Shown piece after piece: positions 3,536 through 64,000 of a stretch of DNA of 64,000 nucleotides. Position numbers and translations under genes: made by a program. Positions within the stretch are counted from its first letter, which is position 1; the number at the start of each line of letters is the position of its first letter. This DNA comes from Candidatus Micrarchaeota archaeon CG1_02_47_40 (lineage in GTDB: Archaea > Micrarchaeota > Micrarchaeia > Anstonellales > CG1-02-47-40). Location: the NCBI GenBank assembly GCA_001871475.1, contig MNVE01000016.1, positions 197,343 through 261,342 on the forward strand, in the 5' to 3' direction. The notes beneath the pieces are model-generated. The model saw nothing but the letters and a program-made list of their open reading frames with translations. It did not search any database and was not told where the DNA came from.

Positions 3536-6500
3536 ATGCACAACCAAACGAAGCTTGAGGAGAACGTATTGGAGTTTTGGAAGGGGAAGGGCATTTACAA
3601 AAAGGCAAAGGAAAGGAATAAAGAAGGCGAAGCATTCTTCTTCTGCGACGGACCCCCTTATGCCACGGGGCAGATTCACCCAGGCACGGCATGGAATAAG
3701 TGCCTGAAGGATGCGGTTTGTAGATATAAGAGAATGCGCGGGTATAATGTGCGTGCGCAGCCGGGTTATGATACGCACGGGCTTCCGATAGAAGTGAAAG
3801 TTGAGCAGGAGATGAAAATAGGCGAAAAGAAGGAAATAGAGGAAAAAATAGGCATAGAAAAATTCGTGGGGAAATGCAGGGAGTTTGCCACCAGGCACAT
3901 TGAAGTGATAAGCGGGCAGTTTGAGCGCTGCGGGGTGTGGATGGATTTTGAGAACCCGTATATCACTTACAAAAACTCGTACATTGAATCCGCCTGGAAA
4001 ACGATTAAGGCGGCGCATGAAAAGGGATTGCTCTCGCGGGGAGTGTATGTGCTCCCATACTGTACGCGCTGCCAGACAACGCTTGCGAATTATGAACTTG
4101 AGTATGCTGACCAGACGGACCCGAGCATTTACGTGAAATTCAAGGTGAAGGGAAAGGAAAATGAATACCTTGTGATTTGGACTACAACCCCCTGGACGCT
4201 TGTCTCAAATATGGCGGTGATGGCGCATCCAACCCTGGAGTATGTAAAAGCGAAGGTAGGAGATGAAGTTTGGGTGGTTGCAAAGGAAAGGCTGGATGCG
4301 GTAATGGCATTTGCAAATTCCTCGGCAGTGGTGCTCTCGCAAGTATCGGGAAAGAAACTTGAAGGGACGGAATACGAACTTCCGCTTGCGGGAAAAATAA
4401 AAAAGGAGTATAATAGAAAAATGGTGCTCTCGGATGAGTTTGTCAGCGTGGAGGATGGAAGCGGCTTGGTGCACTGCGCTCCCGGGCACGGACCGCAGGA
4501 CTTTATCATAGGAAAACGCTTTGACATTGAAATATTCTCCCCTATTGATGCGGAGGGGAAATTCACGCAGGAAGCAGGCGAGTATGAAGGGATGGACACG
4601 CAAAGCGCGGGAAAGCGCATATTGGAGTATTTGGATGAAGTGAATGCGCTAGTGCATTCTGGAAAAATAGTGCACCGCTACCCGCACTGCTGGCGCTGCA
4701 AGACAAAACTTATTTACCTGACGACAGACCAGTGGTTCATTACAGTCAGCAGACTGAAGGAGAGGATGATGGAGGAGATAGAAAAATGCAATTTCACCCC
4801 TTCTTTTGCAAAAACAAGATTTTCCGATTTTGTGCGCGCCGCGCCTGACTGGTGCATATCGCGCCAAAGGTACTGGGGAATACCGCTTCCCATTTGGATA
4901 TGTGAGAAATGCGCGCATATGAAAGTGGTGGGCTCTGCCTCGGAACTGCCAATCAAGCTTGAGGATTTGCACAGGCCGCAAATTGACACTGTGGAATTTG
5001 AATGCGAAAAATGCAAGGGAAAGATGAAGAGGATTCCGGATATATTGGACGTTTGGTTTGATTCGGGAAATGCGGTGTGGGCGCAGTTTGAAGCAGGGGA
5101 GGCGCTTTTCCCCGCAAACGTGATAATAGAGGGGAAAGACCAGACAAGGGGTTGGTTTTATTCGCTTCTTGGCAGCGGGCTTGTGCTAAAAGACTGCATA
5201 CCTTACTCAAATTTAGTCATGCACGGCTTTTTCGTTGATGAGAAAGGGGAGAAGATGAGTAAATCAGTAGGGAATTTCGTGCCGCTTGAGGAGATAATGA
5301 AGAAAAACGGCTCTGATGCATTTAGGCTTTGGTGCCTCTCTTCCACCATCTGGGATGATTTGAGATTCAACTGGGATGAGATAAGGGAGGCGTCTGTGGC
5401 GCTTGGAATATTATATAATTTGGGGGCGTATTTGCAGAGATTTTACCCTGATAATAAATTGGAGAGGGGCAAAGCGGAGAAAGCAGAGGACGCGTACATA
5501 ATTTCAAGGCTGAATGAAACCGTGAAGGAGTGCACCGGTGCGTTTGAGGAGTACAGGGTGCATGATGCCGCAAAGCTTGCGCGCAGATTTGTCGTGGAGG
5601 ATTTGAGCAGATTTTATCTCAAAATTGCAAAAAAGAGGACGGATGAGGAGTCATTGGCTGCCGTGTATGAGTGTATGTTAACCTCGCTTCGGCTTCTCTG
5701 CCCCATTGCGCCTTGCACATGCGAAGCGGTTTATGGGGAGTTTTTCAAAAAGCATGAAAAAGAGGAGTCCGTGCACTTTTTGGGCTGGCCCGCTTTCAAT
5801 GAGAAGGAAATTGATGCCGTGCTTGAAAAGAAGATGATGGTTGCGCAGGCGGTAATAGCCGCCGCAACGAATGCGCGGCAGAAGGCGAATGTTAAGCTTC
5901 GCTGGCCGCTTGAGAAAATTTCGCTGGCGAGTACGCAAACTGAAGTGAGCAGTGCGGCAGAGGAGCTTTCAGGAATAATATGCGAAATGGCAAATGTGAA
6001 GCAGGTGGAGATTGGGAATGCGCCAAAAAGCAGCTTCTTCCTTGAGCCGAATTTCGCAAAGATAGGGGAGGCGTTTAAGGGGGATTCCAAAGCGGTGATA
6101 GAGGAGCTGGGAAAGATAGATGCAAAAACCGCAGCGGAGGCGCTCTCGCACGATGGGAAGTATGCTGTTTTGGGAAAATACGAGGTAAATAATGAGATGG
6201 TTGGAGTAAAGGAGGAAGCTGGCGGATATTCAATAGCTGAATTTGAAGGGGGAAAGGTTTATTTGAAAACTGAAATGAGCAAAGAGCTTTTGCAGGAGGC
6301 GTATGTGCGCGAGGTGGCAAGAAGGGTTCAGCAGCAGAGGAAAGGGATGAAGCTTGTTGAATCGGATAAGGTGACTTTGGAGATTGCTTGCAGGGGGGAA
6401 ATTAGGGAAATTCTGGAGCGAGGAGAGAAGGAAATTGTGCAGCAGGTGAATGCTTCTTCTGTTGAATTTGTTGAGAAGGCAAAAGGGAAGGAATCGGAAG

Positions 6501-50785: not shown

Positions 50786-52123
50786 TATAGTGCTAAATAC
50801 TGAAAGGTGAATGGTGTTTTAGTAAATAAATGTGGAAAATGGGCTCATGAGTGCTAGATTGATGTTTCCGTTCAAGCCGCATATGTTTGTTGCGATGTTC
50901 ATGTTCCTGTTTATAGTATATGCAGTAATGCAGAATGAATGGAAGGTGCGCGTCCTGATGCTTGTTCCGGTGACTGTGCTTTTTGTGGTGTTTGTAGCCG
51001 CCTTTGCCTGGGGGGTTAGGGAGGTTTCGGCGGAAGCGGTGAGAGAGTATAAGAAGAAGGAGAATGCGAAGGGAAGAGGGATTGCCACAAAAGCTTTATA
51101 AACAGACCGCGCCATAAACACTGCTACCGAATTTTAACGGTAAATGAGGGGCAGAACCTGGTTTTGCCCCCCTGGATGGAATGAAACCCTTAGGGGGTTC
51201 CATCTGCTGTGGAAATCCGAAGCTTTCGGATTTGACTTGCGCTTCAAGTGGAAAAAAAAGACAAGCAGCAAAATAGAATTGCTCCTTAATGCAATTCCCT
51301 TAAGAAATAAGGAAATGAACTTTTGCAACTCCAGTTGATCCTGCTGGAGGATACTGCTATCAGAGTCCGACTAAGCCATGCAAGTCAGCCCGCAACCATT
51401 GCGGACGGCGTAAGGCTCAGTAACACGTAGTCAATCTGCCCTTTGGACGTGGACATCCTCGAGAAATTGAGGTTAACCCGCGATAGGCCATCTATGCTGG
51501 AATGCTTGATGGTTTAAAGGTGCGCGCGAATTGGAGTGCGCACGCCGGAGGATGAGACTGCGGTTGATTAGGTAGTTGGTGAGGTAACGGCTCACCAAGC
51601 CGATAATCAGTAGGGGCGATGGGAGTCGGAGCCCCGAGAAGAGCACTGAGACAAGGGCTCTAGTCCTACGGGATGCAGCAGGCGCGAAACCTCTGCAATG
51701 CGCTAAAGCGTGACAGGGGGACTCTGAGTGGCGGAGAACTTAGTTCTCCGTCTTTTGACAAGCTTAGATGGCTTGTAGAATAAGTGCTGGGTAAGACCAG
51801 TGCCAGCCGCCGCGGTAATACTGGCAGCACAAGTGGTATCCACGAATATTGGGTCTAAAGAGTTCGTAGCTGGCTTGCTAAGTTCACTGTGAAATCTTGG
51901 AGCCTAACTCCAAGGCGTGCAGTGAATACTGGCAGGCTTGAGAGCGGGGGAGGCGTGGAGTACTTACGGGGTAAGGGTAAAAAGGAGAGTATTGAATGCC
52001 GTAATGCGCAATACTTTTCATTATAATCTCGTAATCCTGTAAGGACTCACAGTGGCGAAGGCGCCACGCCAAAACGCGTCTGACAGTGAGGAACGAAGGC
52101 TAGGAGAACAAATCGGATTAGAT

Positions 52124-52837
52124 TTGGAGCTAGGGAAACGCTAATAAATAACAACGGATTGATAGAATTATGAGATTAGAGCGCCGGGTAAGAGACCTCG
52201 TGAGTAAGCAGAAACGAAAGCCGCTTATGAAGGTTAAACTTCCAGTCGAAACAAGCCCAGAACTCTGTAGAGTGCTTGGCATTCTACATGGCGATGGGAA
52301 TATGTCTGGAAGACGAGTTTTGCTAACCGACGAAAACAGGGTGTTCCACAGAACGATACATAAACTGTTTAAAACGGTTTTTGGAATTAGGATGAATCTG
52401 TTTCACGACATAAGAAGAAATTCGTATTACAGTTATACGAAAAGTGTCTTGGTGTATCGTTTTTTGAACGAAATAATGGAAATGCCCTGCGGTCCAGTAA
52501 GACAAAATCTGAAGATTCCGTCTTATATGGAAAAGCTTGGTTTGAAACACCAAGCAGAGTATGTTGGCGGACTCTTTGACGCTGAAGGATGCGTCAAAAC
52601 AAGACAGGCCGAACTCAACCTCTCATCTACTTCAAAGAATATCTTCAAGTTTATTGGAGGGTTTTTGAAGAAGATTGGGGTGACGTACAGTACGTATGAG
52701 AGGAGAAGGCACAAAAATCCGGAATATGAGATATATGTTTATGGAAAAGACGACTTGAAAAAATTTTCAAGATATGTTTCTTTTTTGCATCCGTTGAAAA
52801 TGAAAAAGATGGCGAAATTTCTTTAGCTCCACTAAAA
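52124..52837 (+). mobile_element. 16S rRNA intron 1 (after GGATTAGAT, E. coli ~790 region) encoding a LAGLIDADG homing endonuclease
   Basis: The exon breaks after GGATTAGAT and resumes at ACCCGAGTAGCCC. The intron ends TGGAGCTA...TAGCTCCA are complementary (BHB-like stem). Confidence 0.7.
52170..52826 (+). CDS. LAGLIDADG homing endonuclease (double-motif) encoded in 16S intron 1
   Basis: Motifs LGILHGDGN and VGGLFDAEGCV. 218 aa. Confidence 0.75.
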   Translation: MRLERRVRDLVSKQKRKPLMKVKLPVETSPELCRVLGILHGDGNMSGRRVLLTDENRVFHRTIHKLFKTVFGIRMNLFHDIRRNSYYSYTKSVLVYRFLNEIMEMPCGPVRQNLKIPSYMEKLGLKHQAEYVGGLFDAEGCVKTRQAELNLSSTSKNIFKFIGGFLKKIGVTYSTYERRRHKNPEYEIYVYGKDDLKKFSRYVSFLHPLKMKKMAKFL

Positions 52838-53010
52838 ACCCGAGTAGCCCTAGCAGTAAATGATGCAGACTGTGGTGTTGCGTCAGCCTAGAGCTGGCGC
52901 AGTGCTGTAGCGTAGACGGTGCGAGTTTGGGTAGATGCGGATAAGATGCAGCAAACGCGCACCGGCGGAAGTCTTAAGTCTGCCACCTGGGGAGTACGAT
53001 CGCAAGATTT

Positions 53011-53052
<42 letters not shown>

Positions 53053-53461
53053 GCTGCGGTTCAATTGGATACAACGCCGGGAATATTACCAGAAGAGACG
53101 GCAGAATGATGGCCAGACTGAAGATCTTGCCTGACAAGCCGAGAGGTACTGCACGGCCATCGTCAGCTCGTGGTGTGAACTGTCCCGTTAAGTCGGGAAA
53201 CGAGCGAGACCCTTATGTACTGTTGCCAGCTTTCCTTTGCAGGAAGGCGCACTCTGTACAGACTGCCCGTGTTAAATGGGAGGAGGGAGAGGGCGACGAT
53301 AGGTCAGTATGGTCTGAATCTTCTTGGGCTACACGTGGCTTACAATGGCTGGGACAATGGGCAGCAACTCCGAAAGGAGAAGCGAATCTCACAAACCCAG
53401 CCCAAGTTCGGATTGAGGGCTGGAACTCGCCCTCATGAAGCTGGAATCCCTAGTAATCGCT

Positions 53462-54233
53462 TGTCAACAATCGAGGCAATCTAGCGAAATGTTTATATTG
53501 TTAGCCGCATTTATTCTTGCGGTTAACAGTATGGAAACTAACTGGAAGAAGAATCCCAAATTGCTACAGAAGATAAGGGCATCGTTAGGATTTTCTCAAA
53601 TAAAATTTGCGAGGTTTCTTGGAACGAAGCAAAGCACTTTAAGCGCTCTTGAGCGGGGCGCGATAAAGACGGTTTCTGAAGAAGCCGCCGAGTGCTTTGC
53701 CAAGAGGCTAAAAGGTGTGAAAATTGCATTTATGACTGAAAATGAAATGCAACGGAAACTTTTGCAAATATCGCAAAGAGGAAAGTTCAAGGGAGAATAT
53801 GCAAGAAGTATGGCCCTTAAAGTACATAGTAAAAATGCAGTTGAGAGTGCAAAATCCCAACCTCTTACAAAACAGGAGGAAAGGATAAATACACTTTTGA
53901 AGGAAAGCGGACTGCGCTATGAGGCTCATCCCGCAATTGACGCGGGGGGCATTTCTTTCGTGGCAGATTTTAAGGTAGAAAAAAATAGATGGATGATTCT
54001 TATTGAGGCTAAAGAATTTAGGACGAAATATAGATTGAAAGCGCCTATATGCGAACTTGCATACAAGGCTACGCGGATAAAACGCTTCAATAAGAATGTG
54101 ATGATGGTTGCAGTCGTAAGCGGAAGACTTATGCAATCTGAGAAAAAGATTCTTTCGGATGAGTTTGACGCTGTTTTTGAAGATGAAGGAAAAATATTAG
54201 AATTCGTAAATAGATTGCCTTGAGTGAACTCGA
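53462..54233 (+). mobile_element. 16S rRNA intron 2 (after CCTAGTAATCGC, E. coli ~1350-1360 region); boundaries +/-15 nt
   Basis: The exon sequence ...GAATCCCTAGTAATCGC is interrupted and resumes at ...GCGGTGAATACGTCCC. It encodes a non-LAGLIDADG ORF. Confidence 0.65.
53489..54223 (+). CDS. intron-encoded HTH (XRE-type) plus PD-(D/E)xK-like nuclease-fold protein (putative novel homing endonuclease)
   Basis: HTH_3-like LQKIRASLGFSQIKFARFLGTKQSTLSALERG. The C-terminal AIDAGGISFVADF...WMILIEAKEF gives a D...ExK arrangement. The ORF-track start at 53435 lies in the rRNA exon, so the start was moved to an internal Met. Confidence 0.5.
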   Translation: MFILLAAFILAVNSMETNWKKNPKLLQKIRASLGFSQIKFARFLGTKQSTLSALERGAIKTVSEEAAECFAKRLKGVKIAFMTENEMQRKLLQISQRGKFKGEYARSMALKVHSKNAVESAKSQPLTKQEERINTLLKESGLRYEAHPAIDAGGISFVADFKVEKNRWMILIEAKEFRTKYRLKAPICELAYKATRIKRFNKNVMMVAVVSGRLMQSEKKILSDEFDAVFEDEGKILEFVNRLP

Positions 54234-54400
54234 GCGGTGAATACGTCCCCGCTCCTTGCACACACCGCCCGTCAAATCACCCAAACGAAGTTTTGGTGAG
54301 GCTTTGCTTCTTGGCAGACCCGAACCAATTCGTCGCGAGGGGGGTTAAGTCGTAACAAGGTATCCGTAGGGGAACCTGCGGATAGATCACCTCCAATATA

Positions 54401-54466
54401 TTTTATCTTCGGATAAAATTGAGGAATAACAGCATGCGAAGTGCGCAAAGGAAGCCGATGTTTTTT
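54401..54466 (+). terminator. hairpin (TTTTATC-TTCG-GATAAAA) and oligo-T tract immediately after the 16S 3' end
   Basis: A TTCG tetraloop hairpin at 54401-54418 is followed by TTTTTT at 54461-54466. Confidence 0.4.
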
Positions 54467-54571
54467 ACTGTTCTGTCTATTCCATTACTTGAAGCGCAAA
54501 TTTTGTATTTTTTTATTTTGATTAGCGCAAGCCTTACGTGTTTAAATTAACCTTTACTGCAAAATCCCTTC

Positions 54572-55045
54572 ATGAAAATCAGCTTAACTCCGGAACTCTC
54601 TTACCTGATAGGGTTATGGCAGGCAAGGGGAAGCCAGGAGGGAGTAGGAATTTGCGGAAACAGGAGAGTGTGCGAAATCTTCCTTGAGGAAGCGCTGAAA
54701 ATCGGGATTGCAAAACCGGATAAAATACAGCTTAAGGAGGATAAGATATATTTTTACCATTCGGCTTACCGCGCGTTTTTTGAGGAAGTGCTGAAGGAGA
54801 GGCTTGAGAGGTTTAAGTACAAAAATGAGTTTGCCGCGCAATATTTGGCAGGTGTTTTTGACGGGTGCGGGGGGATTTTGGAGGATGGGAAGGGTGTGTT
54901 TTTTGCTTGCGGAAATAGGGAGGATGAAATGCTTTTGCTTCGCCTTGGGTTTAAGGCAAAAAAAGTCGGGAAGAGGATTATTGTGATTGGAAAGGAGGAG
55001 TTTTTGGGTTTTGTGAGCAAGTATTTGAAATATTTTGAATGGTGA
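54572..55045 (+). CDS. free-standing LAGLIDADG-like protein in the 16S-tRNA spacer (first motif degenerate)
   Basis: The second motif is YLAGVFDGCGGI. The first motif, YLIGLWQARGS, has lost the acidic residue. 157 aa. Confidence 0.5.
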   Translation: MKISLTPELSYLIGLWQARGSQEGVGICGNRRVCEIFLEEALKIGIAKPDKIQLKEDKIYFYHSAYRAFFEEVLKERLERFKYKNEFAAQYLAGVFDGCGGILEDGKGVFFACGNREDEMLLLRLGFKAKKVGKRIIVIGKEEFLGFVSKYLKYFEW

Positions 55046-55326
55046 GAAAATGCAACACCTGATGCGTTTTGATGCTGGTGCGTTCGCAAGGAGAATTGAA
55101 AAGATAGATATTGAAAAGTTGATGTCTTACGAAAATGCGCTTAGGGTGCGGATGAGATTCAGTCTTTCCAAGCCGCTGTCAGCACAGGAGGGAGAGAATG
55201 GGCGGGTAATCGCACGCTGGCGGCTGGTAGAGGAAGAGATTGGAAAAAGAAACGGAAAATGAGCAATTCGTGACAAACTTTTATAAATAAAAAGAAAGAA
55301 AATGTCTTTACAAACAATAGCGATTT

Positions 55327-55389
55327 GCAATGAGGGCTTTGTAGCCAGCTCATTGCAAAAATTTGAAAATCGCTCTGCGCGATTTTCAA
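55327..55389 (+). other. two adjacent perfect hairpins in the rRNA spacer
   Basis: GCAATGAG-(15 nt)-CTCATTGC spans 55327-55356. TTGAAAATCGC-TCTGC-GCGATTTTCAA spans 55363-55389. They are preceded by TTTTATAAATAA at 55280. Confidence 0.5.
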
Positions 55390-55531
55390 ATGAGGTGTAG
55401 AATTATGAACGGCGGGTGTTTTAGCATTAAGCAGAAAGGGTGGTGCGTTTTCTGAAGCGAAAGTAAGGAAGGAAAGCTCTAATTCTGAAAAGTCTTTAAG
55501 GGGAAGGAAGTGTTCTTTGAATGTTGAAGAA

Positions 55532-55672
55532 ATGCAGCAGTTAGTGAATACTGCATGCTCCAAATATTACTCCCTGCGGGAGCTTGGGGAAATGTTCGGG
55601 GTTTCGCGTTCTTCTGTGTGCAGGGCGCTGGAAAGGGCGGAAAGCCTGGGAATTGCCCCGCTTATTCTCTGA
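55532..55672 (+). CDS. 46-aa HTH peptide resembling a resolvase/sigma-r4 C-terminal HTH (possible gene remnant)
   Basis: MQQLVNTACSKYYSLRELGEMFGVSRSSVCRALERAESLGIAPLIL. In-frame stop 12 codons upstream, so this is not part of a longer ORF. Confidence 0.25.
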   Translation: MQQLVNTACSKYYSLRELGEMFGVSRSSVCRALERAESLGIAPLIL

Positions 55673-55958
55673 AATAAAAAAAATGATGTGATGAAGAATG
55701 GCTGAAATGAAGCCAGTAATACGGAAAAACGATTCAGGAATAAATTTCTTCGGCGCGGGACCCGGGGCGAATAGGTTTAGGAGAATCCGGCTGCCCCCGC
55801 CAGATGGGATAATGAAGCTGCCGCAAACCGCGAGTATTGCCAACGCAAAGGCAAATGAAGTGAAAGGAGCGCCATCTGAATGTTTTTACTTCGCGCCCTT
55901 TTGAGGGCGCGGGCAAAACCCTCCCCCTTTATTAACCTGTTTTGACAAAGAATACCAT

Positions 55959-57047
55959 ATGAATAGATTGCATAGATGTGTTGTTTCCATAGGGGGGGCG
56001 GGAAGGGACGGGATTGCCTGGATAAAGAAAATGCCAGCCGTGATTTTTCCTCCATTTCATCCGGCAAACTGGAAAAAACCAAGAAAGGGACGCTTGCCAG
56101 TTATTTCTGCGCCTCTTGCAGAAGATCTCTCTCGCCAAAAACCTGCGCATGTTCCTTTTTTCAGGCATGGCGGCGCCCCTAGAATACTGTCTGAACAGCA
56201 GTTCCTGAAGAACGAACCTTCTCCTTTTGCGGAAGGGCTGGAAAAGCAGGCGGAAGCGTATAATGGACTGGTCTTTGGCATTGCAAGCAGGCTTTGCGAA
56301 GAAAGGGCGGATGAAAAAAAGGAAATTGACGCTCTCCGCATGATTGTAAAGAAGATACGGAGAACCGTCAAGGTTGCGCATGACGCCGGGGAGCCTTTCC
56401 TCTCGGAATCGCTTGAAAGGGGAAATTGGAGCGCGGATTCGCTTGCGTTTCTTCTTTTTGACGTCTGCAGGAGCCTTAGGCTGGAGCCTAGAATGATTGA
56501 CACCCCGAACGGGCTGTTTGTGGCAAACGGAAAATTCGTGATTGACTCGGTTATGCTGCAGGTTATTTCGCGCAAAAATTTTGATGCGGAAAAACGACAC
56601 GTCTGCCGTGAGACTTCGGATGCGGTTGAAATGCAGTATCTTCATCATATGCACATTGCCTACGCAGGGGTTAAGGGCGATTTCTGGGGGGCGGTCAGGG
56701 AAGCCGATAGGGCGGCGAAGCTGAACCCGAACTGCGCCTGCGCGCAACTTGCGAAAGCCATGTTTTACGGGGAGGCGGGGGATTTTCGGAATGCCCTTGC
56801 ATGCTACAACAAGGCGCTGGAAATTGCGCCAGAAGAGGAAACCCTTATTCACGCGCGGGCTGTTTTTTTTGAGAAATTCGGCTGTTTTGAGGATGCGGCA
56901 GGCGGATATATGCGGCTGGCGCGGGCGCATCCGGAAAACTTTTCGTATAAGTTTATGCTTTATTATGCGCTGAAGCAGCTTGAACGCCTGCGCCGGGGGA
57001 GCTCGGATGCGGGCGGGCAAGAGGGGCGGAAGGCGCAGACCGCTTAG
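55959..57047 (+). CDS. hypothetical protein with C-terminal TPR-like repeats in a compositionally atypical (G+C-richer) segment
   Basis: Sequences AKLNPNCACAQLAKAMFYGEAGDFRNALACYNKALEIAPEE and FEKFGCFEDAAGGYMRLARAHPEN are TPR-like. Both strands carry a 362-aa ORF here; the plus strand is the protein-like one. Confidence 0.35.
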   Translation: MNRLHRCVVSIGGAGRDGIAWIKKMPAVIFPPFHPANWKKPRKGRLPVISAPLAEDLSRQKPAHVPFFRHGGAPRILSEQQFLKNEPSPFAEGLEKQAEAYNGLVFGIASRLCEERADEKKEIDALRMIVKKIRRTVKVAHDAGEPFLSESLERGNWSADSLAFLLFDVCRSLRLEPRMIDTPNGLFVANGKFVIDSVMLQVISRKNFDAEKRHVCRETSDAVEMQYLHHMHIAYAGVKGDFWGAVREADRAAKLNPNCACAQLAKAMFYGEAGDFRNALACYNKALEIAPEEETLIHARAVFFEKFGCFEDAAGGYMRLARAHPENFSYKFMLYYALKQLERLRRGSSDAGGQEGRKAQTA

Positions 57048-57086
57048 CTTTCTTTTTTAAACTCTTTTCAACAAAATATAATTAGT

Positions 57087-57223
57087 GGGCTCGTGGCGCA
57101 GCGGTAGCGCGCGTGCTTTGCAGTTGAGCAAGAGACGTCTTCTCAAACAAAAAAGCACGAGGCCGTGGGTTCGCGCCCCTAAAATTTTATTTTGGAGGCG
57201 GCTCAAAAATCCCACCGAGTCCA
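57087..57223 (+). tRNA. tRNA-Ala(UGC) with a canonical 37/38 intron (~30 nt) and a probable second intron in the T-loop (~34 nt)
   Basis: Acceptor GGGCTCG/CGAGTCC (G3:U70 Ala identity pair). D arm GCGC-AGCGGTA-GCGC. Anticodon stem CGTGC/GCACG with loop TTTGCA-[intron]-A. T stem GTGGG/CCCAC with loop TTC-[insert]-AAAT. Discriminator A. No encoded CCA. Confidence 0.55.
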
Positions 57224-57227
57224 CTTT

Positions 57228-57698
57228 TCATATCTTTATCTGATTTCCGCCATTGTCTATCGTGTAGTCTGAGTCGAACTTCTCAATCGCAAAGAGGATT
57301 TTTGCAAGCGTTTCCTTCCTGTTTCCGAATTTTGCCTCCGCGAGCGCATTCCTTATTGCTTCGCACAGCTTGACTATTCTGCCGGCTTCGTTCGCAAAAG
57401 ACGTGTCGGTTTGTGCCAGCTCTTTTTTCAGATTTTCAATTTTCGCCCGCAGTTTTCTTGTTTCTGCAGTTTCTCCGCTTTTTTGAGTGAGTTGCCGTAT
57501 GCGCCCCGGCACGCGGCATTTTCCCCCAACGCCCGTTTGGTGCGGCTCCGGTGCGGGCTTTATGCCGAAACGAATTCTTCTGCTTGTGGTTTCCCCGCCA
57601 GCTGTTTTTTGCGTGGAATGGCTCCATTTGTTATGCGCAGTTAATTTAGTCATGAATATCACCTGTGTTAGATTATGCACAAGCGTATTTATAAGCAT
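57228..57698 (-). CDS. hypothetical coiled-coil protein encoded antisense in the tRNA-23S spacer
   Basis: The C-terminal half (RKLRAKIENLKKELAQTDTSFANEAGRIVKLCEAIRNALAEAKFGN) is protein-like. A TATA-like TTTATAAAC lies ~38 nt upstream of the internal Met at 57698. Confidence 0.25.
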   Translation of the reverse strand: MLINTLVHNLTQVIFMTKLTAHNKWSHSTQKTAGGETTSRRIRFGIKPAPEPHQTGVGGKCRVPGRIRQLTQKSGETAETRKLRAKIENLKKELAQTDTSFANEAGRIVKLCEAIRNALAEAKFGNRKETLAKILFAIEKFDSDYTIDNGGNQIKI

Positions 57699-59912
57699 TG
57701 TCTTTTTGCGGGAAATTGGAGAAACCCCCAAGAAAGGTTTATAAACAAATCTCTGCTTAACATATGCCACCCTTTTGAGCCGGAAAGTTAAAGGAGAGGC
57801 TTAAACATCAGCGTCCCTCGTGAAGGGGTTGCGATGCATGAATTATCACCCCTTAGGGTAGGTAATCTCAAACGGGTTGACGCATCCTGATGTTTTTGGG
57901 AGCGGATTCCAAGAGTATGAAGAAAAGTCGCATTTACAAAGTAGTAGAAGAAAGGATATGATATGTTTGTTACTGCCGGGCAGTGGATAGCTTGGCTTGG
58001 GCAAAATGCGGATCGTGGCAAGCTGCGAAATGCTCGGGGTAGGCGCAGGCAGCCTGTAATCCCGAGGTAATCCGTTTAATACGCGGGGAATCGAAACATC
58101 CTATTACCCGCAGGAAGAGAGAACAATTGTGATTTGGTAAGTAAGGGCGACTGAAAGCCAAAAAGGGCAACCTGAATACCCAACTGTAAGGTTGGGAAGA
58201 TGTGGGGCCGCCAACAACGCAAGTTGTTGGGCTGTGCTCGCAAGAGCACTTAAGTAACATCCGCCGCACTAGGGGAAGCTCCTGAAAAGGGGCGCCAAAG
58301 AGGGTGAAAGCCCCGTACCCGAAAAGCAGGCGGAGAAAGGCACAAAGAGTAGCGTCCATTGAGTATTGGACGCAAATATGGCGGTATCGATCGCCAACCC
58401 TAAACATACCCCAAGACCGATAGCGAAGAAGTAGCGCGAGCGAAAGCTGAAAAGGACCCCGAAAGGGGTGTTAAAAGAACTTGAAACTGTCCGGCTACAG
58501 TTTGATGCGGCATGAAAGCGTTAATATCTCCCGAAGCTACCGACCGAAAGGAAGGGTGCGAGGGGGATTCAGCGGTGTCGCATCCTCCTTCTATAAGCAA
58601 GGGCCAGGGAGTTTCTACCTGCGGCAAGGCGAGAGCCGGAGCGAAAGCGAGTGCGAAAGCGCGAAACAGTCGTTGGTAGCAGACCCGAAGCTGATGTGAG
58701 CTATACGTGGATAGGGCGAAGCCGGCCTGACGGCCGGTGGAGGCCCGCAACCAGTGCTAGTATATTCTGCTTGGGTGATCTACGTATAGGGGTGATAGTC
58801 CAGTCGAACTCAGCAATAGCGGGCTCCCCCCGAAGTATATCTCAGTATAGCGCCGCGGGAGTTGTTGCGCAAGGTAGAGCACTGATCGGAGAGTACGGGC
58901 CCGAGAGGGCTCACTTTCTTGTCAAACTCCGAATTTGCGCAAAACGAAGAACGCGGCAGTAGGCTTCTCTCGGGTAAGCCGAGAGGACTTTACGGGAACA
59001 ACCGGTACCGCGGTTAAGGTCCCAAAATTCTGGTTAAGTGTGACTCTCAAGGGGTCTCCAGTCTAAGACAGCTGGAAGGTAGGCTTAGAAGCAGCCATCC
59101 TTCAAACAACGCGTAATAGCGGACCAGCCGAGATTGCGGACCCCGAAGATGCTCGGGGCTAAATCAGATACCGATACCGCGGAATGGCGCACTGTTAGGT
59201 GCGCGCAATTTGGTAGGGGGGCGAACCGGTCGGGCAGAAGCGCGGGTGTGAACTCGCGTGGACCGGCCGGCTATGAAAATCCTGGTATTAGTAGCAGCAT
59301 ATCCAGGCGAGAATCCTGGACGCCGAAAGTACACGGTTTCCTTGGCCATGTTCTTCAGCCAAGGGTAAGGCGATCCTAAGCACGAGGCTAATTGCCAACT
59401 GTGCAAAAGGGAAACCGGTTAAAATTCCGGTCCCGGATAGATAGGCGCGGCAACGCATGATGCGTTCCTGACGTTTTGGGGTAGGTGCAGTGGAGGAGAC
59501 TCCATTTAAGCAAGATAAGCCTTCGGAGACTCATTGTGAGGAGAAGAAGGCTAAATTTGCGAGCGGCCGCACGGTTGCGCCAAGCCCCGGAGCCCTTGAA
59601 AAGGGAACGCGTAACGATTCTATCCGACCGTACCTAGAACCAGTACAGGTGATACTGGCAGAAAAAGCCAAGGCGTGGCAGGACAACTCTCGTAAGGGAA
59701 CTTGGCAAGTTAGTGGCGTAACTTCGGGATAAGCCATGCCTGCGGGCCTTTGCGGGCCTGCAGGTCTCAGTAACAAGGGGAGACCGACTGTTTACCAAAA
59801 ACACAGGTCATCGCAGAGCCGAAAGGCTAAGTACGATGGCCGATGCCTGCTCACTACTGGTACGTTAAACTCCGGTTCAACGGAGCAAAGCGCCAGCAAA
59901 GAGCGGGGGTAA

Positions 59913-60504
59913 TCGTCAGTTCCAATTTTAAACATCAAATGAGCTTGGTTCCATATGCAGAAGTTTGAGGAGTATTTTATAGGCGCACTTCAAGATGCGT
60001 ACGTCGATGAAAAGCGCAATGAGATTCAGCTGTACCAAAAGAATAAGGAATGGCTCGATTTTATTAATGCCAATCTTAAGAAAGATTACGGCATTACTGG
60101 AAAGATTTTCAAAAGAGACGTTTACTTGCTTAGAAAAAGAAGCAAAGCGTTTGTTTTGAAAATTAAAGAGGCAAAAACTAGAATGAATTCTTTTGGCGCG
60201 GATTTCGTCGCAGGGCTTTTTGATTCGGAAGGTTCTGTTTACCTTTCAACAAAATCAAAAATACCCATCATTGATGTAACGCAATCCGAAAAAGGATTGG
60301 AATATCTTAAGTGTGCGCAAAAAATTCTTATGGAGAATGGGATTGATTCGAAACTGAATGGCCCATATAAACATAAGCATGGAAAACTCCTGCAATATCA
60401 TCTGCGCATATATGGAAATAAAAAATGTGGGATATTTTTTAGGTTAATTCCCATTTATTATAAGAATAAGTTTGAGAAATGCTCATTTTGAACTGACGAC
60501 CCCA
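59913..60504 (+). mobile_element. 23S intron 1 (between GGGGGTAA and ACTCTGACCCTCTTA; E. coli ~1915-1925 region)
   Basis: Flanked by complementary TCGTCAGTT...AACTGACGA. Contains a single-motif LAGLIDADG ORF. Confidence 0.7.
59955..60491 (+). CDS. LAGLIDADG homing endonuclease (single-motif, homodimer type)
   Basis: Motif FVAGLFDSEGSV. 178 aa. Confidence 0.7.
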   Translation: MQKFEEYFIGALQDAYVDEKRNEIQLYQKNKEWLDFINANLKKDYGITGKIFKRDVYLLRKRSKAFVLKIKEAKTRMNSFGADFVAGLFDSEGSVYLSTKSKIPIIDVTQSEKGLEYLKCAQKILMENGIDSKLNGPYKHKHGKLLQYHLRIYGNKKCGIFFRLIPIYYKNKFEKCSF

Positions 60505-60703
60505 CACTCTGACCCTCTTATTTGGCTCTTGCAAGAAATTGCCGGAGCTGATGTGAGATAGGTAGCGTAATACCTCGCCGCTTAATTGGTGGCTTGCATG
60601 AATGGCATAACGCGTCTCCCACTGTCCCTACGAGGGACCTGGTGAACCTACTACTCTGTGAGTATGCAGAGGACTTCTAGGGGGAAACGAAGACCCCGTG
60701 GAG

Positions 60704-61467
60704 TTGGAAACTACTCTCTACCACCGGAAAACTACCGTCTCGGGAGGTTTATAAACAAGGAGAAACGAAAGGGAAAACATATGTTTGAACTTTCTCCCTT
60801 GCTTGCCTACGAGACAGGTGTCCATCTTGGTGACGGAAACTTGACGTACAATAAAAAATGGAACCTTTACAGAATAACTTACGCAGGAAATTCGGAAACG
60901 GATTCCGAATTTTTTGAGTGCGTTCTTCCAAAATTGATTTTCGAAGTTTATGGAAAACGGGTGCGGATTTATCATCCAAAGGGCGAGAAAACCGTTCTTG
61001 TTGTCCTAAACTCAAAGGAAATCGCAAGGTTCAAAATGGATGCGCTTGGGCTTCCTTCAGGAAATAAAAATCAGCTGAAGGAATTTCCAAGGAAGCTTAA
61101 GGAAAAATATCCTGCAGATATTGTACGAGGTTTGGCAGACACTGATTTCTGTCTTTATTTTAAGGATAGGAATAAGGATGGAATTGCCGAGATTCCGATT
61201 ATTGAAGGGTGCTTCTCAAACGAAGCGTTCTGTTCGGAAATCTCGGGGATACTTTTCAGATTGGGGATATTGCATTCTACGCGCAAGGTTGTTTCGCATA
61301 ATAAATATGTGGAACACCGAATACGCGTTGAGGGCAAAGGTCAGTTTTGCAGATGGATGGAAAAAATCGGGTTTTGGAATCCGAAACATCTTGCAAAAGC
61401 AGATGATTATTTTGGGAATTTTCCGGCAGAGTTTTAATTTTTTTAAACCAGTTTCCGACGCGGATAG
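60704..61467 (+). mobile_element. 23S intron 2 (after GAAGACCCCGTGGAG; E. coli ~1950 region)
   Basis: The exon resumes at CTTTACTATAGCCTG. The flanks TTGGAAACT...CCAGTTTCC are complementary. A TATA-like GGTTTATAAACAAGG lies ~25 nt before the HE start. Confidence 0.7.
60781..61437 (+). CDS. LAGLIDADG homing endonuclease (double-motif)
   Basis: Motifs LAYETGVHLGDGN and IVRGLADTDFCL. Start at MFELSPLL; the upstream part of the ORF is rRNA exon. Confidence 0.75.
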   Translation: MFELSPLLAYETGVHLGDGNLTYNKKWNLYRITYAGNSETDSEFFECVLPKLIFEVYGKRVRIYHPKGEKTVLVVLNSKEIARFKMDALGLPSGNKNQLKEFPRKLKEKYPADIVRGLADTDFCLYFKDRNKDGIAEIPIIEGCFSNEAFCSEISGILFRLGILHSTRKVVSHNKYVEHRIRVEGKGQFCRWMEKIGFWNPKHLAKADDYFGNFPAEF

Positions 61468-61631
61468 CTTTACTATAGCCTGCTGTTGAGATACGGTGAT
61501 GGTCGCGGAGCGTAAATGGGAGCCGTTACGCTGCATCTTTCGGGGTGCAGATAGGCGACATTGTAACACCATTCGATCGTTATTGTATTTCTTACCGGAA
61601 GGGACCGCGGCAGGTGGATAGTTTGGCTGGG

Positions 61632-62364
61632 AGTCCGAAGATTTAAGGAAAACAGGAATCAAGCAATGCGTTCTTTCTCACGCCGAGATTCTTGGAACGG
61701 GAGTCGGAAATGCGACTCTCGTCCAGAAATCTGACTTTGGTTGAGAAAATGGAAAGCGAGCGCTTGTCATAAACGCGAAGCCCGTGCGTTGAATGTGAAA
61801 CTCTGATGCCCAAGCTTTCAAAGCAGTTTGAAAGTTGGCTGCGCAGATGAGGATTATAGCATGCGATGTCGATGACTCCGCGCGGATGCGAACGGTCTAT
61901 GGAAATTGAACCGTCGCAGGAGCAGTATGCGCGTAAAAATGCGCATGTAAAAGATTTGGAGAGAAGAATGCTGTTTGGAATTTTGCATTTGGGATGTGTG
62001 CCGTCCGCAAACGGAGCAGTCCTGAATGTTGAAGCTTCCGAAAGCAGTTTTTTTGCGATTGGCACCGAGAAAAACCTCGCTGATTTCGCAGAACCGCAGC
62101 GGTTATAGGAGAAATTTCTTTTTCCGAATTCGCAATTAGTGATGTGCCTGAAATAGTCAAGCATTCCTTCAACAGTATTGGTGAATTGGATGCAGTATGT
62201 CCGTTTTGACTTGTCAAAATAGAGTGAACCGTCTGAAAGAAGCATTGCAAATAGTTGTGCTAAATTTTCGTTCATAATAAAACGAAATGTTTTTTGTTTA
62301 TAAGGGTGCGCAGGGAGTAGAAGTCCGCACCCTCCGATTCCTGCTTACATCTTCGGACCAGCAA
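61632..62364 (+). mobile_element. 23S intron 3 (after GTTTGGCTGGG; E. coli ~2065 region) carrying its HE gene on the opposite strand
   Basis: The exon resumes at GCGGTACATCCTCGATAAGGAAACAAGG. Flanks GTCCGAAGAT...ATCTTCGGAC are complementary. A hairpin GGGTGCG-(15 nt)-CGCACCC lies at 62303-62333. Confidence 0.65.
61643..62275 (-). CDS. LAGLIDADG homing endonuclease (double-motif) encoded antisense to the 23S rRNA
   Basis: Motifs LLSDGSLYF and LRAYCSCDGSIS. 210 aa. Its own TATA (CTTATAAACAA) lies ~28 nt upstream on the minus strand. Confidence 0.7.
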   Translation of the reverse strand: MNENLAQLFAMLLSDGSLYFDKSKRTYCIQFTNTVEGMLDYFRHITNCEFGKRNFSYNRCGSAKSARFFSVPIAKKLLSEASTFRTAPFADGTHPKCKIPNSILLSKSFTCAFLRAYCSCDGSISIDRSHPRGVIDIACYNPHLRSQLSNCFESLGIRVSHSTHGLRVYDKRSLSIFSTKVRFLDESRISDSRSKNLGVRKNALLDSCFP

Positions 62365-62632
62365 GCGGTACATCCTCGATAAGGAAACAAGGATGCCCAA
62401 TGTTCAGCTTAGGTGCGTTAGAAATGCACCGTTAAGGGTAAAGGACAAATGCTGGACTGACTGTGTTCCTAATAGCATGGGACGCAGAGGCGAAAGCCGG
62501 GCCTAACGAACCTTGGCACCCTTTTGATGAGGGTCCAAGCTGTCAGACAAGCTACCCCGGGGGTAATTCCACCGGCGGAGTTTTTTGATTAACTGTCAGT
62601 GGAACTCCATACAGGCTCGTCGCGGGCGAGAG

Positions 62633-62880
62633 ACAAATCTCTCCCGATTTTTAATTTAAGGACGATGCTTAAAGGTGTCTTCTATTCTCTAAAGTATTTT
62701 CTGCATTGATATGCAATAGCAAACCCGGCATTCGGGTTTGCTAGCTGTGCCGCACGAAAAGCGTGCGGCACTAAAAAGAAACATCTGGGATACTAAAGGA
62801 TAGTTGAACCTTTAGGCTAGTGTAAGGTTTTCGATACGAAAACTATATCGTCTGGTTTATGGGAGGCATTTGCTCAAATA
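62633..62880 (+). other. 23S intron 4, ORF-less structured intron (between GCGAGAG and CCCATCGACCCCGCGG; E. coli ~2449 region)
   Basis: About 248 nt with no ORF. Internal hairpins include AAACCCG-GCATT-CGGGTTT and GTGCCGCACG-AAAAG-CGTGCGGCAC. Confidence 0.55.
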
Positions 62881-63000
62881 CCCATCGACCCCGCGGTTTG
62901 GTACATCGCTGTCGGCCTAGGTCATCCTGGCGGTGCAGGAGCCGCCAATGGTTGGGTTGTTCATCCATTAAAGACCTACACGAGCTGGGTTCAGAACGTC

Positions 63001-63731
63001 AAGTTGGGCGTTGCTAGGCCGCAAGGCCTTGATAAATAAAATTGGCTCATATCGGTGAAACCTCGCTTTAAAAATATTGCAGACCGCAATGTTTGCAAGA
63101 AAGCGTGGCAATACCGAGGGAAGGCGAGATTTGTGGATTCAACAATGCTTGCGTATATCGCAGGGTTCCTTGATGGAGATGGCAGTATCTTCTTTCAGAT
63201 AGTCAGAAGAAAGGACTACCGTCGGAAATTCCAGATAAGAAGCAGCGTTGCTTTTTATCAGAAGACGGATTCGTGCCGCATTTTAAAGTGGCTCAAGGGA
63301 AGATTGAAAGCGGGGTATATCCGCCATCGCAAAACAGGAATCAGTGATTATACAATTGTCGAATCAAAAGAGGTGGAAAGGATTCTTTCCATTCTACATC
63401 CGTACGTGAAACTGAAGAAAAGACAGCTTGAACTTGGTTTGAAAATTCTGCGCAAACTCAAAAAATCACAAAGCAATAAGGATTTTCTTGGAGTTTGCAG
63501 GCAAGTTGACAAGTTTAAGCTGTTGAATTATTCCAAGAAAAGGACAGTGACATGTTCGGTCGTAAGCAAATCTTTGCCCCTGTAGAGACTGAGGCAGAAG
63601 TGGTCCTGAAAGGAACACGAAAATGCCGAGAGTCCTGCCAAAGGGCAGGGCTAAGACGCCGATCTCCCATGCAGCAAGCGTGGGATGGTGGTATAGTCCA
63701 TGCCATTCCGAAAGGAATGGATTAAACATGC
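63001..63731 (+). mobile_element. 23S intron 5 at the I-CreI homing site (CAGAACGTC^GCGAGACAGTTCGG; E. coli ~2593)
   Basis: The exon breaks after GGGTTCAGAACGTC and resumes at GCGAGACAGTTCGGT. Confidence 0.75.
63055..63585 (+). CDS. I-CreI-family single-motif LAGLIDADG homing endonuclease
   Basis: MLAYIAGFLDGDGSIFFQI...AGYIRHRKTGISDYTI...LKKRQLELGLKIL...DFLGVCRQVDKFKLLNYSKKRTVT parallels I-CreI (LYLAGFVDGDGSI...GYVRDRGSVSDY...KFLEVCTWVDQIAALNDSKTRKTT). The functional start is probably the internal Met at 63145. Confidence 0.8.
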   Translation: MKPRFKNIADRNVCKKAWQYRGKARFVDSTMLAYIAGFLDGDGSIFFQIVRRKDYRRKFQIRSSVAFYQKTDSCRILKWLKGRLKAGYIRHRKTGISDYTIVESKEVERILSILHPYVKLKKRQLELGLKILRKLKKSQSNKDFLGVCRQVDKFKLLNYSKKRTVTCSVVSKSLPL

Positions 63732-64000
63732 GCGAGACAGTTCGGTAGTATCTCCTAGGAGTGTTTCCGCCTGAGAGGAAGAACCCTTAAGTACGAGAGG
63801 AACTTGGGTTCGGCGCCTCTGGTGTACCAGTTGTGCAAAGCACCGCTGGGCAGCTACGCGCTATTGGATAAGACCTGAAAGCATCTAAGGTCGAAGTCAA
63901 TCTCAAAACGAGGCGGATTGGGCGGTCGTAGCAGACGACTTTGATAGAAGGGGGGTGTAAGAGCTAAGCGCAAGCGAGGCTTTCAGCCTGTCCCTTACTA

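Follow-up and report, generated by a model that had tools for sequence, protein, structure and literature searches.

Among the archaeal introns that carry LAGLIDADG homing endonucleases, those encoding I-DmoI (in the 23S ribosomal RNA, or rRNA, of Desulfurococcus mobilis) and I-Tsp061I are the closest described relatives, in kind, of the element that concerns us here: each sits at a conserved site in rRNA, is bounded by a bulge–helix–bulge (BHB) motif and has a body made up of little more than one monomeric, two-domain endonuclease gene. The BHB—a helix, a bulge of 3 nucleotides (nt), a 4-base-pair helix, a second 3-nt bulge and a helix—is the structure on which the archaeal tRNA-splicing endonuclease acts, and genes of the I-DmoI type are generally taken to owe their expression to the host transcript or to the excised intron. 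As is generally known, they read in the same sense as the rRNA. In this paper, we consider an intron whose gene does not. It occupies positions 61632–62364 (+) of a 64,000-nt stretch of Candidatus Micrarchaeota archaeon CG1_02_47_40, a metagenome-assembled genome from Crystal Geyser (contig MNVE01000016.1, positions 197,343 to 261,342; we refer to the whole stretch as the window), and it interrupts the P-loop of the 23S rRNA at site L2252. It shares the overall plan of the I-DmoI and I-Tsp061I introns and differs from them in its insertion site, in having no detectable sequence similarity to any solved endonuclease and, above all, in carrying its gene antisense to the rRNA with promoter-like signals of its own. 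How could such a gene be expressed, and is its backward orientation an accident or a habit?

An endonuclease gene lying opposite the rRNA strand of a ribosomal DNA intron has been seen before, in rather different company. I-DsqI (Dsq.L2066) and Dir.S956-2 (from Didymium iridis) are antisense His-Cys box genes with an internal promoter, housed in nuclear group I introns of myxomycetes (PMC9548176). These nuclear genes show transcription by RNA polymerase II (Pol II), polyadenylation and spliceosomal introns, and it has been proposed that the separation of nucleolus from nucleoplasm, and so of Pol I from Pol II, serves to avoid interference (PMC9548176). The question of antisense interference is thus common to both systems, but the I-DsqI type belongs to self-splicing group I introns and encodes His-Cys box enzymes, whereas the window has a LAGLIDADG gene in what would be a protein-spliced BHB intron, in a cell with a single RNA polymerase and without compartments. 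Neither of the two things that define the I-DsqI type—a group I ribozyme as host intron and a His-Cys box enzyme—is found here, and its antisense genes are a functional analogue of the P-loop gene, not members of the same class. Nearer in host are the archaeal group I introns described by Nawrocki et al. in 2018, which occur in Micrarchaeota rRNA genes among others, where multiple LAGLIDADG introns, BHB and other kinds together, coexist in one gene (PMC6125680). Those lie at LSU (large-subunit) sites 1923, 1931 and 2593 and at SSU (small-subunit) site 1498, not at 2252 (PMC6125680), and the window intron, from the same host group, is without group I signal. Free-standing homing endonuclease genes of the phage type are alike in being autonomous transcription units aimed at a conserved site in an essential gene (again general knowledge), and they differ in that the window gene sits inside its target gene, from whose RNA the host's BHB splicing would excise it.

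Gene orientation goes unmentioned in a survey of Thermoproteales 16S introns (PMC4496867), in the group I study just cited (PMC6125680) and in a survey of rRNA insertions in the Candidate Phyla Radiation (CPR) (PMC11270868). Within the searchable literature we found no antisense endonuclease gene in an archaeal intron; most subscription-journal papers lie outside that literature, so this is absence of evidence only. The initial annotation of this locus, made by a model from the letters alone, had called the arrangement unfamiliar in archaeal BHB introns, and for archaea the remark stands to the extent that this incomplete literature allows, tempered by the precedent in nuclear group I introns (PMC9548176). 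What is new, in other words, is a combination of two known kinds of thing, a BHB rRNA intron and a monomeric LAGLIDADG gene of the I-DmoI type, put together in an antisense layout.

We argue that the element is probably a mobile archaeal BHB intron in P-loop DNA that carries an autonomous antisense transcription unit for its endonuclease, with orientation left free. We begin with the intron. The Rfam archaeal LSU model matches 57974–64000 (+) of the window with 1809 bits, and a local covariance model (CM) alignment shows, after GGCUGGG (ending at 61631), an insert of 735 nt in place of the 2 nt of the model, with the match resuming at GGUAC (62367). Taking out the 733 nt from 61632 to 62364 restores the conserved mature sequence GGCUGGGGCGGUAC by both the CM alignment and the E. 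coli register, and the junction GGCTGGG|GCGGTAC is exactly the one that the initial annotation had proposed. Because GACUGGGGCGGUC begins at position 2246 of the E. coli 23S rRNA, the insertion point falls between G2252 and G2253. This is the P-loop, in helix 80, two of whose bases, G2251 and G2252, hold the CCA end of the P-site tRNA by base pairing.

At these boundaries, the RNA fits a canonical BHB base for base. On the exon-1 side (61623–61631, +) come the outer helix strand UUG (61623–61625), the central strand GCUG (61626–61629) and the bulge nucleotides GG (61630–61631); just inside the intron, the inner helix strand GUCCGAAGAU (61633–61642) pairs with AUCUUCGGAC (62349–62358), and the 3' side (62349–62368, +) continues with CAGC (62359–62362), the bulge AA|G (62363–62365) and the outer helix strand CGG (62366–62368). 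The central helix is therefore GCUG:CAGC, flanked by bulges GG|A and AA|G, with the 5' splice site directly after 61631 and the 3' splice site after 62364, and these are the very sites that the rRNA alignment demands. Every one of the 18 unique related introns for which we have both boundaries keeps the four-of-four central helix and the two 3-nt bulges, and the sequence of the inner helix varies among them. In a gap-free alignment of 13 sequences, 94% of the cells in the BHB columns are paired, vs. 20–44% when the partners are slid by one to three columns; 7 of 13 pairs have changed on both sides, a covariation score reached by none of 500 shuffles, and compensatory changes occur at all six of the tested inner-helix pairs across the family. 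The BHB type that had been suggested is thus canonical and covarying. On either strand, the insert gives no group I, group II or other Rfam match at E ≤ 10, in a search that detects ORF-interrupted group I introns with limited sensitivity (ORF, open reading frame), and we rejected a group I identity on this absence of signal and on the BHB motif found instead. Judged by its sequence, then, 61632–62364 is an archaeal BHB intron and not a group I intron. An unconstrained minimum-free-energy (MFE) fold of the whole intron also pairs its termini, in an extended terminal helix of CAGGAAUC (61653–61660, +, overlapping the 3' end of the endonuclease ORF) with GAUUCCUG (62336–62343, +); comparison by eye with the related locus L001 (CAAGGGAA:UUUCCUUG) suggests that this helix, too, covaries.

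The insert has one long ORF, at 61643–62275 (−), which takes up 633 of its 733 nt and runs antisense to the rRNA. It encodes 210 amino acids (aa) and is, as had been recognized from the start, a complete double-motif LAGLIDADG frame that fills the intron: LLSDGS (with D15) and SCDGS (with D121) are its two motifs, and the Pfam family PF14528 (LAGLIDADG_3) matches the second domain only, at 5.2e-9 and 36.7 bits against a cutoff of 22.5. D15, D121 and the block DKSKRTYCIQ are invariant in 13 sequences (the protein and 12 homologs). A plain sequence search of solved structures with the endonuclease detected zero similarity, so a fold search was required. The AlphaFold2 model (predicted local distance difference test, pLDDT, 95.8; predicted template modeling score, pTM, 0.92) contains the alpha-beta-beta-alpha-beta-beta-alpha unit twice, and Foldseek returned I-DmoI, I-Tsp061I, PI-PfuI and I-SceI at probability 1.00, with about 200 columns aligned to I-DmoI, I-Tsp061I and intein endonucleases. 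ORF list, Pfam, alignment, model and fold search all point to a monomeric two-domain LAGLIDADG homing endonuclease. Between moderately diverged members of the family, the ratio of nonsynonymous to synonymous substitution rates (dN/dS) is 0.08–0.2, and therefore the antisense ORF is maintained by purifying selection.

Both ends of this gene repay attention. NCBI has it as COV61_04680, a hypothetical protein of 200 aa, which is 10 codons too short at the start: in the family alignment, the N-terminal residues MNExLAxLIG, which belong to the first LAGLIDADG helix, are conserved and begin at the ATG at 62275, and so the true start lies 10 codons upstream of the NCBI start, in the stretch 62246–62275 (−) that the annotation omits. 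At its other end, the window ORF is halted by a TAA 11 nt inside the intron, unlike those of several relatives (P0003, P0004, P0006, P0010 and P0012), which cross the 5' boundary of the intron and end in exon-1 antisense. Frames that end in this way lie at 4034–4720 in L001, 4100–4801 in L004 and 498–1184 in L005, in L142 and in others, and their C-terminal tails, such as ..SQPNYPP.., are conserved rRNA sequence, antisense to exon 1, read as protein. Any mRNA expressed from those loci must therefore overlap mature rRNA sequence.

Is the backward gene peculiar to this genome? We gathered homologs and their DNA context by exact-protein look-ups, a metagenome scan and a profile search, the last of which raised the family to 74 protein clusters, and we read the rRNA strand at each locus by blastn of the window's rRNA exons. 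The endonuclease is antisense to the rRNA in all of the approximately 35 loci (about 25 distinct sequences) where rRNA was detectable, and in all of them, the insertion is at the same 23S site or 2 nt away. The loci come from independent ENA, JGI, NCBI and Logan assemblies, with homologs of 32–52% identity and flanking exons that are 68–86% identical to those of the window; where sources are named, they are Micrarchaeota only. Other LAGLIDADG genes of the same loci read on the rRNA strand. The initial annotation had reasoned that sense-oriented genes in orthologous introns would indicate an inversion; we looked for them, and with every orthologous locus antisense, inversion is not indicated. 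Only one relative, P0072, turned out to be sense-oriented; it lies at a different 23S site and is a remote outgroup, with 31% identity and an E of 5e-34 vs. at most 1e-61 for the rest. Because every rRNA-readable locus is antisense and the one sense relative is so remote, the layout is an old and stable trait of the P-loop intron family and not a local inversion. Two metagenome loci (L140 and L146; 36–44% identity) have the intron 2 nt further 3' (GGCUGGGGC|...|GGUAC), after E. coli C2254, with the gene again antisense; their BHB is shifted to match (UGGG:CCCA, with bulges GC|A and AA|G).

The antisense gene has promoter-like signals of its own. A TATA-box-like octamer, CTTATAAA (62297–62304, −), starts 29 nt upstream of the ATG. 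Across the family, the best TATA-like octamer starts at −27 to −31 from the ATG in 18–19 of 24 unique members, and A+T content in the 24 distinct members is ∼0.8 at −30 to −21 vs. ∼0.47 at −60 to −36. Although the ATG may lie anywhere between about 57 and 89 nt from the end of the intron, the TATA-like element holds its position relative to the ATG, which ties the element to the ORF and not to the RNA structure. Ordinary genes of the window have (C/T)TTATAAA either at about −28/−30 without a Shine–Dalgarno sequence or near −50, followed by GGAGG; CTTATAAA fits this consensus and the first, leaderless spacing class, as measured from the ATG and not from a mapped start site. Taken together, these observations are good comparative evidence from which we infer an internal promoter in the antisense gene. 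The initial annotation had given the gene its own promoter, and that part of the proposal looks sound, with the TATA position conserved and the genome consensus matched; such a promoter is not special to the antisense gene, as most sense LAGLIDADG_3 genes in the same rRNA genes share the layout.

Upstream of the TATA box lies a second candidate signal. The 16-mer CGGACTTCTACTCCCT (62312–62327, −) starts 23 nt 5' of the TATA box, and, as had been noticed, it is shared: the window contains a single further exact copy, at 1760–1745 (−), against a chance expectation for an exact 16-mer match in 64 kb, both strands, of about 3e-5 by our own arithmetic. That second copy stands in front of a tnpB gene (490–1707, −; 405 aa; Pfam OrfB_IS605, Cas12f1-like_TNB and HTH_OrfB_IS605), in a unit (1730–1760, −) of 16-mer (1745–1760), seven spacer nucleotides and the octamer TTTATAAA (1730–1737), the last 22 nt before the tnpB ATG at 1707. 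Both copies have the same N7 spacer, a TTATAAA box and then a gap of roughly 21 nt to the ATG, and both lie about 50 nt from the ATG. The 16-mer is thus common to the promoter of a transposon-type nuclease and not to ordinary genes. There is no tnpA adjacent to this tnpB, and an exact look-up of the 405-aa TnpB returned zero records. Could the region upstream of tnpB simply be a copied piece of the intron? We rejected that idea, the similarity 5' of the 16-mer being reached by 517 of 2000 shuffles; since the similarity is confined to the box and the TATA element, the two sites seem to share a discrete element and not a stretch of copied DNA. The 16-mer as a guide target of TnpB is disfavored as well, there being zero partial copies either at the 3' end of tnpB or past it. 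Against 596 Gb of genome contigs, a pattern as short as the bare 16-mer gave, among the matches listed, only chance matches in unrelated bacteria, and the motif-plus-TATA pattern gave zero matches in metagenome and viral contigs. Folded by MFE, the rRNA-sense intron RNA has a hairpin, GGGUGCG...CGCACCC (62308–62334, +), with the complement of the 16-mer in its loop; as neither the tnpB copy nor the other members of the family show an evident hairpin of this kind, it is probably incidental.

In the 16-mer we have the local form of something more widely spread, a CGGMA (or CCGCA) box at −49 to −57 from the ATG and 21–23 nt upstream of the TATA element, which we found in 21 promoters, sense and antisense. 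It precedes most antisense P-loop genes and also, elsewhere in these rRNA genes, sense LAGLIDADG_3 genes that occupy other inserts. An example is next door: the sense endonuclease gene in a neighboring 23S insert of the window has the same layout (60725–60783, +), with CGGAA at 60725–60729, TTTATAAA at 60748–60755 and the ATG at 60781, and a promoter profile hidden Markov model (HMM) trained without window sequences found this promoter as its top match in the window (E of 0.028). Elsewhere, sense LAGLIDADG_3 genes have a TATA-like element at about −27 to −33 and CGGMA at about −50 in L004 (∼5575–5626, −) and L011 (∼1846–1900, −), and in L158 (−), the layout stands upstream of the genes at 1665, 2615 and 5841; in some genomes, the box before such sense genes is a tandem CGGAA-N3-4-CGGAA repeat. 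Genes of the LAGLIDADG_1 type (L004 5838–6383 and L158 4033–4566) have neither the TATA-like element nor the box, and the one in L158 has a GGAGG-like sequence before its ATG. Versions of the box also tend to be particular to a genome: over the 22 nt around it, mean identity is 0.69 within a genome vs. 0.46 between genomes, a difference reached by none of 5000 label permutations, and one version is common to the antisense and sense genes in L011, in L004 and in L158, as it is to the antisense gene and tnpB in the window. An insertion sequence (IS)-type transposase in L002 lacks that genome's version, so the link between box and transposon is one case, that of tnpB. We regard the CGGMA box as a candidate upstream promoter element and a putative factor-binding site.

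How might such an element work? From intron structure, gene integrity and conservation, all of which can be read in the DNA, we infer transcription, splicing and cleavage along the following lines. The host's BHB splicing machinery would remove the intron from pre-23S rRNA, restoring GGCUGGG-GCGGUAC. From the TATA box, which precedes the ATG by about 26 nt, a polymerase running head-on into rRNA transcription would make a leaderless endonuclease mRNA; the intron contains no clear terminator for it, and the CGGMA box, further upstream, may bind a factor. The endonuclease would then cut intron-less 23S alleles at the P-loop site (GGATAGTTTGGCTGGGGCGGTACATCC), and repair would copy the intron in (homing). 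The endonuclease genes look like autonomous transcription units, which would explain why either orientation can work: those in these rRNA genes would bring their own promoter whichever way round they stand, which would leave orientation free. The P-loop family, on this reasoning, was founded antisense and would have retained that orientation since.

Several observations pull the other way. Members of a family share ancestry, and so the counts of loci are not independent events. The promoter is inferred from conservation and from a match to this genome's promoter consensus. The 7 nt directly before the TATA box, GCGCACC, where a purine-rich B recognition element (BRE) might be expected, are neither purine-rich nor conserved in the family; inspection of the antisense gene sequence showed no oligo-T terminator after the stop codon. 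The same promoter HMM that finds the neighboring sense gene scores the antisense site (E of 49) and the tnpB site (E of 28) only weakly. Of the 88 TATA-like sites in the window, 3 carry the box, about what chance would give; the case for the box relies on conservation across loci and on the exact 16-mer. Finally, MFE structure favors a slipped, continuous helix over the two bulges, which is why the BHB call is made to stand on the comparative evidence.

One could go further than we have so far. Perhaps the rRNA-intron endonuclease genes of these DPANN archaea, together with at least one tnpB, are autonomous cassettes with a dedicated two-part promoter (CGGMA box, 16–18 nt, TATA box, ∼21–25 nt, ATG), whose box co-evolves in each genome, implying a factor of host or element that co-regulates selfish nucleases; BHB introns would then arise around such cassettes in either orientation. 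We offer this tentatively, as a possibility about which our doubts outweigh our confidence. If it were true, the antisense P-loop family would represent obligate head-on transcription and a full-length antisense RNA in the most transcribed gene of the cell.

What else might explain the facts? The rival that fares best holds that the antisense orientation is itself functional: excised intron RNA (excised archaeal introns are often stable circles) might pair with the mRNA and silence it, head-on rRNA transcription might throttle the promoter and so confine production of the enzyme to times of low rRNA synthesis, or the mRNA might disturb pre-rRNA maturation near helix 79–80. This would be compatible with an autonomous antisense unit, and there is something to be said for it, in that the layout is kept without exception over a deeply diverged family, the ORFs of the five relatives named above read into exon-1 antisense, archaea generally lack the separation of Pol I and Pol II compartments and antisense interference has been raised for the eukaryotic cases (PMC9548176). 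Uniformity, however, would follow equally from one founding event and from the difficulty of inverting a gene within a 730-nt intron, no sequence feature demonstrates regulation, and sense genes of the same rRNA genes share the promoter layout, which makes orientation look neutral. We think a functional orientation rather unlikely, and antisense interference with rRNA maturation, which the initial annotation also raised, is speculation.

Nor do we expect the gene to be a silent passenger or decaying relic with a TATA-like element that is a coincidental A+T-rich stretch. Homing endonuclease genes do commonly degenerate once fixed (PMC4496867), but here the ORFs are intact across 74 protein clusters, the catalytic aspartates are invariant with the low dN/dS given above and the A+T peak is fixed at −30 to −21 against flanks of about 47% A+T, and this makes the relic improbable. 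Still less probable is an insert that is never spliced, leaving the 23S rRNA in two pieces in the style of bacterial intervening sequences, with the endonuclease gene standing independently between them. Ligation cannot be read from DNA, it is true, but the canonical, covarying BHB excludes this scenario (one that had been named as fatal to the intron proposal) as far as sequence can exclude it: the cut sites exactly restore the universally conserved P-loop sequence, and a permanent break there, where (as is general knowledge) the rRNA holds the CCA end of the P-site tRNA, is unlikely to be tolerated. That the arrangement is an artefact of assembly or a strain-specific inversion, a fair worry for a metagenome-assembled genome, is scarcely credible with the same arrangement in about 35 loci of independent assemblies from four data sources.

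The P-loop intron keeps crowded company. The 23S rRNA gene (57974 to the end of the window, +) has six inserts, at 59914–60511, 60521–60560, ∼60705–61458, 61632–62364, ∼62560–62870 and ∼63000–63730, and four of the six hold LAGLIDADG ORFs: 59955–60491 (+), 60781–61437 (+), 61643–62275 (−) and 63055–63585 (+), the last in an insert at about E. coli 2593. Of those without such an ORF, one is about 40 nt long and lies directly before GGUAGCG, and the other, of about 300 nt, is devoid of ORFs. The Rfam group I model found zero matches among the other rRNA inserts of the window. The 16S rRNA gene (51328–53558, +) is about 750 nt longer than its model and includes a LAGLIDADG_3 ORF at 52170–52826. 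Between the two genes runs a spacer of about 4.4 kb (53559–57973) with an HTH_3-domain ORF (53435–54223) and a TPR ORF (55959–57047), and therefore the rRNA genes do not form a compact operon.

Why should anyone care about one gene that faces the wrong way? The usual assumption is that archaeal intron endonucleases are expressed by way of the host rRNA transcript, and a backward family kept by selection suggests that their expression can be independent of the host's. A promoter pointed head-on in an rRNA operon, where the cell has a single RNA polymerase and lacks compartments, would be a natural system for the study of transcription conflict and of antisense control in archaea; it should also yield an mRNA complementary along its whole length to an abundant excised intron. 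The promoter layout common to sense and antisense genes, and in part to tnpB, bears on where BHB introns come from and on the co-regulation of selfish nucleases. It is a practical matter as well: rRNA genes with many introns are readily mis-assembled or overlooked in surveys, and this gene has been sitting in the databases as a truncated hypothetical protein.

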